Program-made: the position numbers and the translations under genes
Source: Candidatus Multivoradales bacterium
Lineage (GTDB): Bacteria; Acidobacteriota; Thermoanaerobaculia; Multivoradales; Multivoraceae
DNA length: 64,000 bases
Assembly (NCBI GenBank): GCA_965223325.1
Contig: CBDCWI010000002.1
Location: 2,656,001-2,720,000, forward strand
Direction: 5' to 3'
Notes under the pieces: model-generated
Told to the model about the DNA's origin: nothing
The model's input: the letters and a program-made list of their open reading frames with translations, nothing else
Database searches by the model: none
In this document: positions 7,979 through 15,176 of the stretch, piece by piece
Numbering within the stretch: position 1 is the stretch's first letter
Layout: the number at the start of each line of letters is the position of its first letter

Positions 7979-8896
7979 TCAGGCGTCGGGTGCAAGAACC
8001 CCCTCGAAGCGCAGGATGGAACCTTGTTCGTTGGTGACCAGTAGATCTGGACCGTCCCAGGCTACGCCTTCGCACTGCTTGGCTACCAACGGCGCCAGAA
8101 CGAGCGCGACGACGGGTGGTTGCGAGAAGAAGCTCTGGTCGCGATTCGCCGCGTCGGCACCGGGCGCGAGCTCGAAGACCCGCAAGCCGTAGTAACTGAG
8201 CACCGCGAGATGACGCCCGTCGGCGGTGACATCGGCGCCGGTTGCCATGCCACCGCGCGGTATGCCGGCTTCACCGAGGTCGAATACACCGACTTCGACC
8301 AGACGGGCCGCATCCTGCGATTGGTCGAAACGCATCAGGCGCGTGCGCGTGTCTTCTCGGTGCTTGGTCAAGAGATAGAGCTCACCGCCGGTCCAGAAGA
8401 GTGACTCGGCGTCGAAGTTGCGAAACTCTCCCGCCGGCGGCTGCCTTTGCCCGGGGTAGCGAAACGGAATGCGCCGTTTGACGCGCACCGGCTCCGACTG
8501 ACCAATGGTGGGCTCGTCGACCACCAGCACGGTCAAGTCACGGCGCATGCTCGCGTTGTTGCCAATGTCACCAATGTAGAGCTGGCCGGCATCGTCAATC
8601 GCCACCGCCTCCCAGTCGCGGTTGGCCACCGCACTGACGGTGAACACCCCGAGGATCTCTCCCTCGCGCGAGAGCGCGAACAACCGCGGGCTGTTACCCG
8701 AGTCGTTGAGCGTCCAGAAGACGTTCTCCTGCCGGCGGCTCTTCACCAGACCGGAGCTTTCGGGAATCACCGTGGTATCGAAGTGAGCGAACGCCGCCGC
8801 GGGAACGGCTTCTACCCCTTCTCCGGCGCTGTCCTCCTGAGCCGGAACTGGCACCGCAACCAGGAAGCCAACCATCGAAAGCCAGAGGATCTTCAC
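7979..8896 (-). CDS. Secreted beta-propeller-like hypothetical protein (SdiA-regulated/phytase-like)
   Basis: GTG start overlaps the NUDIX stop (GTGA); signal peptide; ESSGL, TLNDSG, DWEAV, GDIGNN, FDAE and QCEGV motifs. Confidence 0.65.
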   Translation of the reverse strand: MKILWLSMVGFLVAVPVPAQEDSAGEGVEAVPAAAFAHFDTTVIPESSGLVKSRRQENVFWTLNDSGNSPRLFALSREGEILGVFTVSAVANRDWEAVAIDDAGQLYIGDIGNNASMRRDLTVLVVDEPTIGQSEPVRVKRRIPFRYPGQRQPPAGEFRNFDAESLFWTGGELYLLTKHREDTRTRLMRFDQSQDAARLVEVGVFDLGEAGIPRGGMATGADVTADGRHLAVLSYYGLRVFELAPGADAANRDQSFFSQPPVVALVLAPLVAKQCEGVAWDGPDLLVTNEQGSILRFEGVLAPDA

Positions 8897-9309
8897 CGCT
8901 GTCTCAGCTCTTCGAGCACTGCCGCCAAGGCCGGTCGATCGGCCCGCGCCCAGTCGAGCTCGGCGAGCGCTCCGGCATCGAACCAACCCCAGGCTTCATG
9001 CTCACGTGCAACCGGCTTTCCTCTGAGGTGTCGTGCACGATAGATCTCGAGAACGAAACCGCGGCCTGTTTCTTCCGCGGGCGCCGTTTCTGAGCTCGCC
9101 AACAGGTGACCCACTTCGATGTCGATCCCCAGTTCTTCGCGAATCTCGCGAGCCAGCGCGTGGGCCGGCGCTTCTCCTTTTTCGACCTTGCCACCAGGGA
9201 ACTCCCATTTGCCAGCCAGGCTCATCTGCGGACCGCGCTTGGCGGCCAGACACTCGTTCTGCCGGACAATCGCCGCACCCACCACCAGGACCGGAGAGTC
9301 AAAGGCCAT
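8893..9309 (-). CDS. NUDIX (d)NTP pyrophosphohydrolase, MutT/NudG-like
   Basis: WEFPGGKVEKGEAPAHALAREIREELG Nudix box; alternative start at 9336. Confidence 0.9.
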   Translation of the reverse strand: MAFDSPVLVVGAAIVRQNECLAAKRGPQMSLAGKWEFPGGKVEKGEAPAHALAREIREELGIDIEVGHLLASSETAPAEETGRGFVLEIYRARHLRGKPVAREHEAWGWFDAGALAELDWARADRPALAAVLEELRQR

Positions 9310-11061: not shown

Positions 11062-11550
11062 ATGCGCCTTTCCCCCGGTCGCACGCTCGCCGTGCTCGCC
11101 CTTGTCTTGTTCGCCACCACCGCCACTCTCATGGCTGAAGGCCCAGAAGCCACAGTCGAAGACCTGAGCTGGATGGTTGGCTCCTGGCAAGGAGAGGCCA
11201 TGGGCGGCATGCTGCAGGAAACCTGGACGGCTCCTGAGGGCAGCACCATGACGGGCTTGGTGCGCGCCTGGAGCGGCGACGCCACCTCCATGGTCGAGCT
11301 GATCGTCATCGAAGAAGAAAACGGCTCCCTGGTCCTGCGCTTGCAGCAATTCGACAAGGGGTTCAAGGCGCGCTCCGAACCGCAGCCCTTCGAACTCTCG
11401 AGCGTCGAGGAGAACAAGGTGGTGTGGAAAGCAACCGGTGAAGGCGGTCTCGCCGGCCTTGGCTACAGCAGTCCCGAACCCGGCAAGTTCGTCATCTCGG
11501 TCGAGACTCCGACCGGCCAGAAGTTCGACATCCCGTTGTCGGCCAACTAG
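11062..11550 (+). CDS. Secreted DUF6265-like protein
   Basis: SD aggag; signal peptide; LSWMVGSWQG...ETW...GSTMTG pattern. Confidence 0.7.
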   Translation: MRLSPGRTLAVLALVLFATTATLMAEGPEATVEDLSWMVGSWQGEAMGGMLQETWTAPEGSTMTGLVRAWSGDATSMVELIVIEEENGSLVLRLQQFDKGFKARSEPQPFELSSVEENKVVWKATGEGGLAGLGYSSPEPGKFVISVETPTGQKFDIPLSAN

Positions 11551-11726: not shown

Positions 11727-14700
11727 TCAGGCAGGAAGGTCGACGGCGCTCGGGGTGTCGTCACCGAAGAGATCGAAGTCACCGGCGAGTACCCGCTCGA
11801 GGTGGCCGGTCTTCCAGCCTCGCGACGCATCACGCACGAGCGGCGATGGCTCGCGCCGATAGCGGCGAGCGATCCCCACCTCGTCGCCTTTCCGCTCCAG
11901 GAGCTCGACCGCCGTAGCCGGCGTACCCAGGCCGTTGGCCGCCGGCTGGGCGGCGACCCGCACGCGCGCCCGAACGCGCTTTGTGCCCCGCCCCTCGGTC
12001 GGTACCTCGAGTACGTGGACGCCGTTCTCGCTCTCGAGCAGGCTCCAGGCTCCGAAGCCCACGATCGAAAGCACGGTCCTCGGGCCCCGATCGACGACCT
12101 CGCTGCGCATGCTGCGACGCTCAGCCCAAGCGCTGTACATCGAAACTAGATCTCCGGCCCAGGATCGCGTTTCGGCACCGGCGTCGGGCGGGACCTCGAC
12201 GGCCAGGTAGGCATCCCACGGCACGCCGGCATCGAGGTCACGTAGTCCGACCTCGATGAGACGCACCTTTTGAGCGAGACGTCCCACCAGATTGCTCGGC
12301 GGGTCGCCCTGGTGTTGTGCCAGCCGCTGGCCCAACGACTCGACGGTGCGGGTGGCGGCGCGCAGCCGGTCAATGGACTCAACGAGAGTCAGAACATCGA
12401 AGCGATCGTCGCGACTCCAGAAATCCGAACGTGCCATCTGCGACATCGCGTCTTGTTTGCGTTCCTGCCACCGCGGTGAATCGAGAGTCTCGGCAAGCTG
12501 CGCCACGCGCCGGGTAAGTTCGGCGCGCTCGACCTCGTCGCCGCGCGGCGAGAGCGCCATCTGAGTGAGTACGGGTGGCGCGCCGCCCGATCGTTCGGCC
12601 TGCTCCCGGGCCTCGACTTCAGAGGGACTTGACGCATCGGGGTCGACGAACTCGACCGCCAGCCTGTCGCCCGCCGCCCGGATGAAGAGAAACTGGTCGC
12701 CTTCGGGGACCTGCGCGTCAACGATGGAACGCGCCAGGGGCGCTAGCAGGTGTTCTTCGACGGCTCGCTTGAGCGGCCGCGCACCAAGATCGGGTGTAAA
12801 ACCCTGGTCGAGGAGAAACTCGATCGCCGAGCTGTCCCACTCCACCGCCCACTGCCGGCGACGCAGCCCTCGACGCTCGAACACGTCGCGCAACTCGAAC
12901 TCGAGCAACCTTCGCATGACGTCTCTCGAGAGCGGGCGAAAGATCACCGTGCGGTCGATGCGATTCCGAAACTCGGGCCGAAAGACGCGCGCCAGCTCGC
13001 GCTCGACCGAGGCAGCGTGAAACGCGGAACCATCACCCGCGAAACCGATCGAGTGACCAACCGGCACCGCGGCACCCAGGTTCGAAGTCAGAATGATCAG
13101 CGTGTTCCTAAAATCGGTCAGCACGCCGCGATGATCGGTCAAGCGACCGTCGTCGAAGACTTGCAGAAACAGATCCCAGACCTGTGGCGCCGCCTTCTCG
13201 AACTCGTCGAGCAGCACGATCGAGAAGGGCTGCTTGCGCACCTGGTCGCAGAGTGAGCCCCCGAGCTCGCTCGTGGTGCCGTCCCCCAGAATACGATCGA
13301 GCGACTCCGAGTGTTGAAACTCACTCATGTCAAGCCGCACCAGGCGCTGGTCGGAACCGAACAGATAGCGTGACAGCGTCTTGGCGACCTCGGTCTTGCC
13401 GGTGCCGGTTGGACCGGCGAACAAGAAGACCCCCAGTGGTCGTGTGGGATCACAAACGCCAGCTTTGATCATCGCGACCCGCTCGACCAGACAGTCGATC
13501 GCCTCCGGCTGTCCGAGCACCGAGTTCTCGAAGCGCTCGCGCAGCGTGGACATCTCGAGGGTCTGCCGGTCGTCGAGAATGCGGGCCGGCAAGCCGGTGT
13601 GTTGAGCGAGCGTCTCGATCAGGTCATCCGTGGTGAGTTGGCGCTCCGGACGAGAAACAGCGGCCGCCTGACCCTGTCGCTCCCCTCCTCGGGCGCTGAT
13701 GCGATCAAAGGTGGTGCCCAGAAAGCGCAGGAGCGAACCGGGGGCGGCACGATCGGCGAGGAACTGGCGCGCGAGTTCGGCCGCTTCGGACAGAAAGTCA
13801 TCGCCTGGCGCTCTGATGTCACTGTCGGCCAGCCGCCGGCGCGCGACTTCCCTGGCGAGTGCGAGGGTCTCGCCGTCGCTCATCGGCTGAATCTCGCTGC
13901 GCTCGAAAGCCTGGCGCACTCGTGGGCGCGCTTCGCGCAGTCGACTCCAGGGCGCCGGCAGAGCTTCGGTCAGAACGACGATCCGCTGGCGCTCGATGTG
14001 CGGCAAGAGCATGCTGAGAGCATCGTTCTCGCTCTGCGAGTGCCTGCCGGTGAAGCGCAGGGCGGGAAGGTCTGGGATGTACCAGACGATCTTCGAACCA
14101 CCGAGCTGGCGCAGCAGGACCTGGAGCCGCTGCTCGAGCTGCCCCACGTAGACCTGGCCGGCAATCAACTCCGTGTGACCGGCCTCGAAGACCACCCAGC
14201 CGTCGTCGGTCAGGCGCCGGGTCACGCTGTCGACAACCGCCGTTTTGCCGACCCCGCTCTCGCCCACCAGCACCACCGATCGCCGCGTGAGAAGGGTCGC
14301 CAGCACCTGATCGCAGCGCGCATCGTGCATGGGGTGACCGATGGGCAAGGCGGCATCATCGATGCGCCGAATGCTCCCGATGTCGCGCAGAACCGCAAGA
14401 TCGAAGCGTGAATCGCGCCACCGATCGAACGACTCCCGCAGAGGCATCGAGAGTTTCGCCGGCAGACGCCGGAGAACCGCCTCGACTTCCTCCTCGCGCG
14501 TTGGGTCTTCGATCTTGAAGTCCGTGACCTCTAGCGGCTCGCCGCGGCTCGAACGCAGCGCGAGAAACTCTTCTAGAAAGCGTTGCTTGTGGCGATTCCA
14601 GGCGAAGCTGTCGTCGAGCCCCGAAATGACGGCCGCAATTGTCTTGCCCTCGTCGCCGGCCAGCTGATCGATCGCCCGCAGAGCGAACCATGACGCCCAC

Positions 14701-15176
14701 GGCTGGTTGTCACCTAGCCCCTCGGCGATCTTCGAGACCCAAGTGGCGTCGGCCCGACGCTCGAGCGCCTCGAGAGCAGTACACGACACCACCCAGTTGC
14801 CGCCCCGCGCGTACTCCACGAGGTCAGCGAGTGGTACAGCCTCATCGAGCAGGACTTCCACTGCCGCCGAGAAGTCAGCGTGGGCGGCAAGAGCGCTTGG
14901 CGATGCGGTGCTGGCGGCGAAGCCCTCGAGCCCTTTTGCAGCCCGATGCAGGCGGGCAGACACCGATTGGTCGAGGGACTTCTCGTTCTTCGCCGTGCTC
15001 TCGCCGGCAGCTGTACGCTTCGCATCGGCACCCTGCGCCGCGAGTCCTCGACCCCTTTCAACCCGCGATGCGTCGTTCAGCTTCGCCGTCGCCGCCCCGG
15101 CGCGCAGTCCAGCGACAAACCGCCAGGCTACGAAAACTGCCAGGGCAGCGAAGACAACGATGATCGCGCTTTCCAT
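11727..15176 (-). CDS. Membrane-anchored ClpA/ClpB-like AAA+ ATPase with C-terminal release-factor-like (PCRF) module
   Basis: N-terminal TM helix; Walker A motifs GESGVGKT and GPTGTGKT; Walker B LLDEFEKA; DDGRLTD, RPEFRNRID, GARPLKR; C-terminus resembles RF2 domains 1, 2 and 4. Confidence 0.85.
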   Translation of the reverse strand: MESAIIVVFAALAVFVAWRFVAGLRAGAATAKLNDASRVERGRGLAAQGADAKRTAAGESTAKNEKSLDQSVSARLHRAAKGLEGFAASTASPSALAAHADFSAAVEVLLDEAVPLADLVEYARGGNWVVSCTALEALERRADATWVSKIAEGLGDNQPWASWFALRAIDQLAGDEGKTIAAVISGLDDSFAWNRHKQRFLEEFLALRSSRGEPLEVTDFKIEDPTREEEVEAVLRRLPAKLSMPLRESFDRWRDSRFDLAVLRDIGSIRRIDDAALPIGHPMHDARCDQVLATLLTRRSVVLVGESGVGKTAVVDSVTRRLTDDGWVVFEAGHTELIAGQVYVGQLEQRLQVLLRQLGGSKIVWYIPDLPALRFTGRHSQSENDALSMLLPHIERQRIVVLTEALPAPWSRLREARPRVRQAFERSEIQPMSDGETLALAREVARRRLADSDIRAPGDDFLSEAAELARQFLADRAAPGSLLRFLGTTFDRISARGGERQGQAAAVSRPERQLTTDDLIETLAQHTGLPARILDDRQTLEMSTLRERFENSVLGQPEAIDCLVERVAMIKAGVCDPTRPLGVFLFAGPTGTGKTEVAKTLSRYLFGSDQRLVRLDMSEFQHSESLDRILGDGTTSELGGSLCDQVRKQPFSIVLLDEFEKAAPQVWDLFLQVFDDGRLTDHRGVLTDFRNTLIILTSNLGAAVPVGHSIGFAGDGSAFHAASVERELARVFRPEFRNRIDRTVIFRPLSRDVMRRLLEFELRDVFERRGLRRRQWAVEWDSSAIEFLLDQGFTPDLGARPLKRAVEEHLLAPLARSIVDAQVPEGDQFLFIRAAGDRLAVEFVDPDASSPSEVEAREQAERSGGAPPVLTQMALSPRGDEVERAELTRRVAQLAETLDSPRWQERKQDAMSQMARSDFWSRDDRFDVLTLVESIDRLRAATRTVESLGQRLAQHQGDPPSNLVGRLAQKVRLIEVGLRDLDAGVPWDAYLAVEVPPDAGAETRSWAGDLVSMYSAWAERRSMRSEVVDRGPRTVLSIVGFGAWSLLESENGVHVLEVPTEGRGTKRVRARVRVAAQPAANGLGTPATAVELLERKGDEVGIARRYRREPSPLVRDASRGWKTGHLERVLAGDFDLFGDDTPSAVDLPA

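Follow-up and report, generated by a model that had tools for sequence, protein, structure and literature searches.

We analyzed a single open reading frame (ORF), P0001, on the minus strand of a 64,000-nucleotide stretch of contig CBDCWI010000002.1 from Candidatus Multivoradales bacterium (the window), and found that it belongs to a widespread, unnamed single-gene family of proteins of approximately 1100 aa. The protein opens at its N-terminus with a hydrophobic anchor and a HEAT-like solenoid, continues with a double AAA+ core of the ClpA/ClpC kind and ends, after a flexible linker, in a paralogue of the peptide chain release factor RF2. The RF2-derived module is most likely a non-hydrolytic, codon-independent probe of the ribosomal A site, as judged from its sequence and from comparison with known systems. 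For the protein as a whole, the function that we put forward, with a probability of approximately 0.3, is to couple the state of the ribosome at the membrane to the ClpP-dependent removal of the nascent chain or of a ribosome-bound factor. An earlier note on this DNA had described a single ORF in which a membrane-anchored Hsp100/Clp ATPase is joined to an RF2 mimic lacking GGQ. The ORF is present, all the strings quoted in that note are found in its translation (VWYIPDL at residues 364-370, QMARSDFWS, SWAGDLVSMYSAWAERR, GAWSLLESENGVHVL and ARRY..EPSPLVRD..GWKTGHLERVLAGDFD), and the structural reading agrees with the sequence, profile and fold evidence presented below.

11727..15176, minus strand: whole ORF P0001, 1149 aa plus stop, uninterrupted

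The C-terminal module and the linker that joins it to the ATPase consist of the following features.

12540..12638, minus strand: variable low-complexity linker between the ATPase and the RF2-like module (residues ~847-879), unconserved and length-variable in alignment A1

12222..12539, minus strand: RF2 domain-1-like three-helix bundle (residues ~880-985), aligning to RF2 residues ~4-115

11757..12221, minus strand: RF2 domain-2/4-like superdomain (residues ~986-1140), with the motifs MYxxWA, ExGxHVLE and RRYRxxPSPLVRD...VLxGDFD

11874..11948, minus strand: short connector (residues ~1077-1101) in place of the end of RF2 domain 2, the whole of domain 3 (GGQ) and the switch loop

Judged by its profile matches and its predicted fold, the module is a true RF2 paralogue, as the earlier note had proposed for the C-terminus. 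In the whole protein, the Pfam family PCRF matched residues 993-1056 with 35.4 bits against a gathering score of 24 (E 1.3e-8), and the C-terminal 280 aa searched alone gave E 5.2e-10. The last 280 residues matched the solved RF2 chains of the PDB at E 1.1e-9 by phmmer, and a profile of 41 family modules matched PDB RF2 at E 9.5e-18, compared to 2.9e-11 for RF1. Among the NCBIfam models, prfB (aligned to residues 886-1056) gave 6e-9, compared to 6.5e-5 for prfA; by sequence, the module is nearer to RF2 than to RF1. The profile alignment consists of two collinear pieces, 11-207 to RF2 4-210 and 243-277 to RF2 318-352, with RF2 211-317 skipped, and ~108 RF2 residues are replaced by ~35 in the family profile. 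An hhalign comparison with the RF2 of the same genome gave a probability of 97.5 with 236 columns across RF2 25-344. The AlphaFold2 (AF2) model of the module, which has one helix in the connector at ~1077-1101, reached a mean predicted local distance difference test score (pLDDT) of 93.5 and a predicted template modeling score (pTM) of 0.89. In a Foldseek search of the PDB, the ~50 best matches were all bacterial or mitochondrial class-I release factors. The superposition of the predicted model on RF2 that the earlier note had suggested, performed by VIA-align with free E. coli RF2 (1gqe, residues 7-359), gave Z 18.2 and a root mean square deviation (rmsd) of 4.7 Å over 258 residues, and the domain 2/4 part matched ribosome-bound RF1/RF2 at Z 16-17 and ~3 Å rmsd over 135-155 residues. 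The tail had originally been placed from residue ~906 (12460); its presence is upheld but this start is not, as the module begins near residue 880 (window ~12539).

In the query, GGQ, SPF and the Pfam RF-1 domain (PF00472) were not found, the first two absences having already been reported in the earlier note, and TIGR00020 (RF2) was matched with a score of 35.4 against a cut-off of 370. With no RF-1/GGQ domain, no SPF and a sub-cut-off score, the protein is by sequence not an RF2. The RF2 of the same genome carries GAGGTDSQDWA, SPF, GGQ and GWGSQIRSY; in the family, the GGQ domain and the switch loop are deleted, and the SPF and GGTE-type positions are variable. Residues W903, K907, W920, R925, D936 and R937 of domain 1 are invariant in A1, in which the MYxxWA helix, ExGxHVLE and, foremost, RRYRxxPSPLVRD...VLxGDFD are also conserved. 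In RF2, codons are recognized at the decoding center by a superdomain made up of domains 2 and 4, domain 1 binds the L11 stalk, and, in the absence of a stop codon, the A site can be occupied by a compact form of RF2 whose SPF is unbound (PMC5378476; this and the other papers with PMC numbers are drawn on for parts of their text). The ribosome-docking parts are thus kept under strong constraint while the codon-reading, switch and catalytic parts are lost, from which we infer a non-hydrolytic, codon-independent A-site probe. The modules have a median net charge of +1 and a pI of 8.1 (40 modules) vs. -22 and 4.9 for the whole RF1 of the genome, a comparison that is not domain-matched; a basic module would fit RNA binding without the lost parts.

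The same genome also encodes canonical RF1 (361-aa frame) and RF2 (364-aa frame), as well as ClpA, ClpB, ClpC, ClpX and ClpP. Since canonical RF1 and RF2 coexist with it, the module is a third, specialized release factor (RF) paralogue. The genome's own RF2, at C2:2343122-2343682 (L084), lies in a stop-to-stop frame of 364 aa without an obvious start codon (PNASMTLRKGY...), a beginning that would presumably fit the usual programmed +1 frameshift of prfB.

The ATPase core consists of a D1 and a D2 module, with the following features.

13677..14300, minus strand: D1 AAA+ module without an M-domain (residues ~293-500)

14241..14264, minus strand: D1 Walker A, GESGVGKT (residues 305-312), with G305, G308, G310, K311 and T312 invariant in alignment A4

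14127..14162, minus strand: D1 pore-loop equivalent AGQVYVGQLEQR with Tyr343 (residues 339-350)

14067..14087, minus strand: D1 Walker-B position VWYIPDL, with the acidic pair replaced (residues 364-370)

12951..13442, minus strand: D2 AAA+ module (residues 579-742), Pfam AAA_2

13251..13295, minus strand: D2 pore-loop-1 position RILGDGTTSELGGSL (residues 628-642), with GYVG absent, 2-3 residues shorter and unconserved

13035..13052, minus strand: SIGFAG (residues 709-714), with an (L/I/V)GF tripeptide at the position of the ClpP-docking loop of ClpA/ClpC

12693..12932, minus strand: ClpB_D2-small domain with sensor-2 GARPLKR (residues 749-828)

The two AAA modules named in the earlier note were recovered by Pfam as several P-loop models over residues 297-401, AAA_2 over residues 579-742 (E 3.5e-44) and ClpB_D2-small over residues 749-828 (E 1.8e-14), and positions 207-728 of the NCBIfam ClpA model aligned to residues 299-827. 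For comparison, we used an alignment of six sequences (A4), comprising the genome's own ClpA, ClpB and ClpC-like proteins (identified by NCBIfam) and three family members. Motifs were counted across 244 full-length members with regular expressions anchored on flanking motifs, and members without the anchors were left out (15/244 for the ClpP loop, ~40/244 for the D2 loop and 63/244 for D1). For the KYR-type Tyr of D1 and for the Walker B, sensor and Arg-finger motifs, we assume the roles that they have in AAA+ proteins generally.

The degenerate Walker B of D1 and the intact D2 without GYVG, both claimed in the earlier note, stood up in A4. The pore-loop equivalent of D1 aligns with AG(A/T)KYRG(E/Q)FE of ClpA, ClpB and ClpC and is kept as AGQxYxGQLE with Y343 invariant; the pattern AGxxYxGxxE is found in 165 of 181 members. 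At the D1 Walker-B site, FIDE(L/I)H of ClpA/B/C stands against IPD or VPN in the family. The corresponding dipeptide is PN in 51 of 181 members, PD in 36, PA in 17, PG in 10, PE in 10 and others in the rest, with DE absent from the variants listed for these 181 members. D1 is predicted to bind nucleotide yet to be dead in hydrolysis. In D2, GPTGTGKT (Walker A), LLDEFEKA (Walker B), TSN (sensor-1) and FRPEFxNR are intact and invariant in A1 and A4, as are G798, A799, R800, P801 and R804 of the D2-small domain. The G(A/S)PPGY(I/V)G pore loop of D2 is replaced in A4 by a shorter, variable loop; a GYVG-like motif was counted in only 1 of 205 members, and 20 of 203 have an aromatic residue of any kind in the loop.

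The ClpP-docking loop was located between sensor-1 and FRPEFxNR. In A4, SIGF of the query aligns with LGF of the genome's ClpA and MGF of the ClpC-like protein, and ClpB has no such tripeptide. G711 is invariant and F712 is kept in ≥90% of the sequences in A1; [LIVMF]GF is present in 200 of the 229 anchored members, and 10 others have a different hydrophobic-Gly-hydrophobic (h-G-h) tripeptide. LGF loops enter hydrophobic pockets of ClpP, are missing from ClpB and serve as a sequence marker for ClpP partners (PMC10149685, in part). The conserved loop of the ClpA/ClpC type points to a partner of a ClpP-coupled protease rather than a bare unfoldase. The ClpP gene adjoins ClpX in the same genome. 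A complex prediction for two ClpP protomers and D2 residues 540-850 with A1 gave a score of 0.17 against a mark of 0.32, and carries no weight either way. A second, weak ClpP-family match in the genome, at C2:2347700-2348095 (L002; 26 bits, E 2.5e-5), lies inside a 519-aa frame, which is possibly an SppA-like or other ClpP-fold protein.

Ahead of the ATPase core, the N-terminal part of the protein comprises two features.

15111..15167, minus strand: N-terminal hydrophobic helix (residues 4-22), a putative N-out/C-in membrane anchor, followed by an Arg/Lys-rich stretch

14301..14999, minus strand: HEAT/ARM-like alpha-solenoid N-domain (residues ~60-292), in place of the usual Clp_N

The N-terminal hydrophobic helix of the earlier note is present at residues 4-22, with a mean Kyte-Doolittle value of 2.51; the best value beyond residue 40 is 1.35. 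The flank behind the helix (residues 24-60) has 7 K+R vs. 4 D+E, and an N-out/C-in topology is inferred for the putative anchor by the positive-inside rule. A similar hydrophobic 19-mer occurs within the first ~140 aa in 184 of the 244 full-length members, and is also seen in A1. For residues 60-292, AF2 predicted an all-helical repeat (pLDDT 91.3), and Pfam gave a weak HEAT_2 match to residues 117-190. The best structural matches of this domain by VIA were exportin-4 (Z 9.1 over 99 residues) and YibA (Z 8.2), which, on the model, are generic HEAT/ARM solenoids with Z values that are unspecific for helical repeats. A Foldseek search with the N-domain gave no match at E<0.05, and residues 1-292 had no Pfam match to Clp_N at E≤10.

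Given these parts, the protein could work as follows. A hexamer would be tethered to the membrane on its cytoplasmic side. Since the anchor is N-terminal, D1 and the HEAT domains would point to the membrane, and D2, which carries the (L/I/V)GF loops, to the cytosol and to ClpP, which would dock on the cytosolic D2 face. The geometry would resemble that of FtsH, with the entry pore on the membrane side. D1 would act as a static, ATP-bound ring for assembly and gripping, and D2 as the sole motor. The span from the FVDPD motif to the FW motif of domain 1, which includes the linker, measures 63-120 residues (median 68; 163 members), and six RF2-derived modules on tethers of 30-50 residues would probe the factor/A site of ribosomes independently of a stop codon, domain 1 contacting the L11 stalk and domains 2/4 the decoding center. 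Candidate targets are ribosomes near the membrane with an accessible A site, e.g., those stalled on membrane or secreted proteins. Through docking, the nascent chain or a factor bound to the ribosome would be remodeled at the expense of ATP, or degraded by ClpP, according to the state of the ribosome. As the module cannot hydrolyze peptidyl-tRNA, release would have to come from elsewhere, through another factor or through force.

The family is large and, in the loci covered, its fusion is obligate. Searched against a word index, the module matched 191 proteins at E≤1e-3; the 120 listed among them are mostly 1050-1250 aa long, are 36-46% identical in the module and are named merely 'AAA family ATPase' or 'ClpC'. 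A precomputed PF03462 match is present in 59 of these 120 homologues, and the architecture is therefore machine-catalogued but unnamed, as the earlier note had suspected it might be. In an exhaustive HMMER search, 198 cluster representatives passed E≤1e-30, rising to 454 when E≤1e-10 was allowed, and the module is at the extreme C-terminus in all of the best 150 of 744 matches. A stand-alone form of the module was considered and rejected: 12 of 12 short proteins inspected among these best 150 matches begin in the ATPase tail or the linker, and are thus fragments of the fused form. In a species scan, using one genome per species and a single peptide pattern (from an alignment of 8 sequences), the fusion was found in at least 299 species genomes, and 80 loci were kept, in all of which (80/80) the module is collinear with the ATPase. 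At loci with short ORFs, the ATPase part is directly upstream in another frame. In three loci from long-read metagenome-assembled genomes (L054, L058 and L062, at ~8900-9000), the frame breaks exactly in the linker (query ~848-852, then 869-879), which could reflect either a natural split of the fusion into two genes or an indel error, the stretch being GC-rich and of low complexity.

The 80 loci are distributed over Acidobacteriota (Pyrinomonadaceae, Blastocatellia), Planctomycetota, Actinomycetota (Gaiellaceae, Acidimicrobiia), Gemmatimonadota, Alpha- and Gammaproteobacteria, Desulfobacterota, Calditrichia, Krumholzibacteriota, Rhodothermales and others, with Inquilinus limosus and Lysobacter as cultured carriers. 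Among 40 relatives from the same genus, family and order, a full-length orthologue was present in only one (G013, E 1.4e-85), and the other matches (~1e-11) are ordinary release factors in frames of 360-400 aa. In one further relative (G012), the last ~80 codons of the gene survive as a frame-shifted relic, which indicates gene loss in a genome of the same family. This relic lies at ~1420-1930 of L096 on the plus strand (VRVRVAAPPE...GIVRKYREKPSP), with a frame change before the GDFDL-like end, and unrelated minus-strand ORFs occupy the place where the ATPase would be expected. The gene is an old, widely spread and dispensable accessory gene.

The survey of homologue neighborhoods that the earlier note had recommended revealed no conserved neighbor; in an all-vs-all clustering of ORFs of ≥90 aa from crude six-frame calls, the best cluster reached 9 of 80 loci. 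In the window, the gene is flanked by a convergent gene for a DUF6265 protein and a divergent gene for an NhaC-type Na+/H+ antiporter, followed by metabolic genes (2OG oxygenase, RidA, NUDIX). The DUF6265 protein (11062..11550, plus strand) has a signal-peptide-like N-terminus and is not kept beside the family elsewhere. A 335-aa ORF (7979..8986, minus strand) has an N-terminal hydrophobic segment and matches no Pfam family at E≤0.001. PADLOC matched the D2 core (residues 534-711) to DolB and PDC-M37B at ~7e-29, a match to generic AAA only. No full-length match to Dodola (DolB) or PDC-M37 was obtained and no conserved neighbor was found, though partner genes were not searched by name.

Compared with its closest relatives on the ATPase side, the protein resembles ClpA and ClpC in its tandem AAA+ modules, the lack of a long M-domain (as in ClpA), the full set of D2 ATPase motifs and the (L/I/V)GF loop. 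It is unlike them in having an anchor and a HEAT-like domain for Clp_N, a dead Walker B in D1, no GYVG in D2 and a 280-aa RF2-derived C-terminal module. The query scores far below the NCBIfam equivalog cut-offs of ClpA, ClpB, ClpC, ClpV, ClpK and ClpG (e.g., ClpB 321.5 vs. 1232, ClpA 293 vs. 993 and ClpV 244 vs. 885), and, in departing from them at the D1 Walker B, the D2 GYVG and Clp_N, it is by sequence outside these groups. ClpI of the Actinomycetota is likewise an additional Clp paralogue, found beside ClpB and ClpC and with or without LGF motifs (PMC10149685, in part); unlike the query, it combines intact ATPase modules with an M-domain and lacks a release-factor module, and the term 'release factor' occurs 0 times in the part of that paper covered. 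FtsH is an N-terminally membrane-anchored AAA+ ring with its protease on the far side, and Cdc48 with Vms1 brings an AAA+ unfoldase and a release-factor-like protein to stalled ribosomes in eukaryotic ribosome-associated quality control (RQC). FtsH and Cdc48 belong to other AAA+ clades than the query, Vms1 has a catalytic RF part of the aeRF1 type, and the activities are unfused. The link between Vms1 and CDC48 is mentioned in PMC6514570 (in part).

With RF2 (PrfB), the module is homologous and shares the fold of domains 1, 2 and 4; it differs in the lack of domain 3 (GGQ), the switch loop (the GWGSQ region of the genome's own RF2), SPF and the GGTE-type motif, in its fusion to an ATPase and in a neutral to basic instead of an acidic charge. 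Balon is a GGQ-less release-factor homologue without a codon-reading motif that acts as an mRNA-independent hibernation factor in the A site (PMC10901736, in part), and as such provides a functional precedent for the proposed probe, although it has an aeRF1/Pelota-type fold, is free-standing, works with EF-Tu and has no ATPase. The chloroplast protein PrfB3 is an RF2 derivative that has lost SPF and GGQ and binds the petB mRNA 3' UTR (PMC5897788, in part), and thus shares with the query a role outside termination. PrfB3 is, however, free-standing, occurs in eukaryotic plastids and is not known to bind the A site, and 82% of its ESM Atlas cluster keeps the RF-1 domain fold; this cluster ranked third (0.87) in an ESM Atlas feature search, a result that serves as a lead only. 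PrfH (RF-H, the partner of RtcB) is a truncated RF paralogue for damaged ribosomes, the domain 2/4 core of which matches the model at Z ~10 (9mq4). Domain 1 is missing from PrfH, which has retained the catalytic Gln (PMC6514570, in part), and the module is the reverse, with domain 1 kept, the catalytic domain gone and no conserved neighbor. The fusion is undescribed in the full-text literature searched, including the parts covered of the release-factor survey PMC6514570, the supplementary lists of which might include the architecture. By sequence, the novelty is twofold: a Clp/Hsp100 ATPase has gained a new targeting module, and an RF2 has taken on a fate that is new and non-catalytic. The ClpP-type loop, the retention of the D1 Tyr, and the spread and sporadic occurrence of the family go beyond the earlier note.

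Several points weigh against a ClpP-coupled A-site probe. SPF, the GGTE-type motif and the Trp of the switch loop are all lost, and affinity for the A site may have been lost too. PrfB3 shows that an RF2 derivative without SPF and GGQ can be reused for non-ribosomal RNA binding (PMC5897788, in part). The charge contrast is weakened because whole RF1 served as the reference and because the high genomic G+C favors Arg, and binding of the protein to ribosomes and to ClpP is only predicted. The gene neighborhoods of the 80 loci give no functional hint, and sporadic presence among the 40 relatives makes the gene dispensable. Any h-G-h tripeptide is missing from 19 of 229 members, and a dead D1 with its Tyr beside an active D2 without an aromatic loop is, from the motifs, not like a classical processive threading motor. 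One alternative, which we regard as a tentative possibility, is that the module works off the A site, as a platform that binds free RNA or else an ArfA-like peptide or adaptor, or as a domain of the Clp ring for autoregulation or oligomerization; the protein would then be a membrane-anchored ClpP partner with membrane-proximal substrates chosen by the HEAT domain. The binding of PrfB3 to an mRNA 3' UTR after its loss of SPF and GGQ (PMC5897788, in part) favors this possibility, as do the loss of every named decoding contact, the basic charge of the module and the fact that the β-sheet edge of RF2 that is extended by ArfA (PMC5378476, in part) is kept as a strand in the model. However, the arrangement of domains 1, 2 and 4 superposes on RF2 (Z 18.2 over 258 residues), and proteins of the PrfB3 type mostly keep the RF-1 fold (82% of the Atlas cluster), which is excised here. 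Domain 1 of release factors also acts with RF3 on the ribosome. Its retention with invariant residues argues further for the ribosome, as the roles documented for it in the part of PMC5378476 covered are solely ribosomal (the L11 stalk).

Docking at the A site could also serve a mechanical remodeler that is free of ClpP, with the motion of D2 passed through D2-small to the tethered module. Such a ring, closest to the 'unfoldase' of the earlier note, would act by evicting a factor, by splitting or dislodging ribosomes, or by pulling on nascent chains at the membrane. The D2 gripping loop is lost yet the motor is predicted to be active, a pore pattern that keeps a ClpP-independent remodeler alive as a rival, since an active ring without a gripping loop suggests work outside the pore. 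The position of the module directly after D2-small and the 19 of 229 members without an h-G-h tripeptide would fit as well, and ClpP-associated unfoldases can act alone (PMC10149685, in part). We nevertheless consider this rather unlikely, as (L/I/V)GF occupies the exact ClpA/ClpC position in 200 of 229 members with its Gly invariant, which is hard to explain without ClpP docking. The same loop would go unexplained if the hexamer were a hibernation device, capping A sites under stress and parking ribosomes at the membrane until ATP hydrolysis frees them on recovery. Balon, GGQ-less and mRNA-independent in the A site, sets an example (PMC10901736, in part), and six tethered modules with an anchor, in an accessory gene, would suit sequestration; but the 80 loci show no association with hibernation factors or stress operons, and Balon has the aeRF1 fold and works with EF-Tu, so that we judge this unlikely. 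Lastly, the RF2-like module might sense a phage or toxin factor that attacks RF2 or the A site, or act as its decoy, and so trigger Clp proteolysis. The patchy occurrence across many phyla, the loss in close relatives and the PADLOC matches to DolB/PDC-M37B (~7e-29) agree with such a role in conflict or defense. It is highly unlikely in our view, since those matches cover only the generic D2 core (534-711), no partner is conserved (9 of 80 loci at best) and the window neighbors are housekeeping genes (Na+/H+ antiporter, DUF6265, 2OG oxygenase, RidA, NUDIX).

Under the ClpP-coupled A-site probe that we prefer, the family could be, and we propose this with considerable doubt, a bacterial single-polypeptide counterpart of eukaryotic RQC, in which a membrane AAA+/ClpP machine carries a stripped RF2 that reads 'A site accessible'. 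To our knowledge, bacterial ribosome rescue feeds Clp proteases only indirectly, via SsrA or Ala tags on the released chain, and the clearance of stalled translocating ribosomes at the membrane is poorly understood. If the proposal is true, the protein would be the first known Clp/Hsp100 enzyme targeted by the ribosome itself and its module the first known non-catalytic A-site probe from the bacterial RF1/RF2 fold, a fold that, like the aeRF1 fold in Balon and Pelota, would be strippable to a state sensor. Even without a link to the ribosome, the membrane anchor and the inverted D1/D2 motif pattern are unusual for an Hsp100. The size of the family and its cultured members (Inquilinus, Lysobacter) make these predictions directly testable. 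If they hold, the family would provide a direct, membrane-located physical link between ribosome and protease, through which the nascent membrane or secretory protein would be extracted and degraded when ribosomes stall at the membrane.

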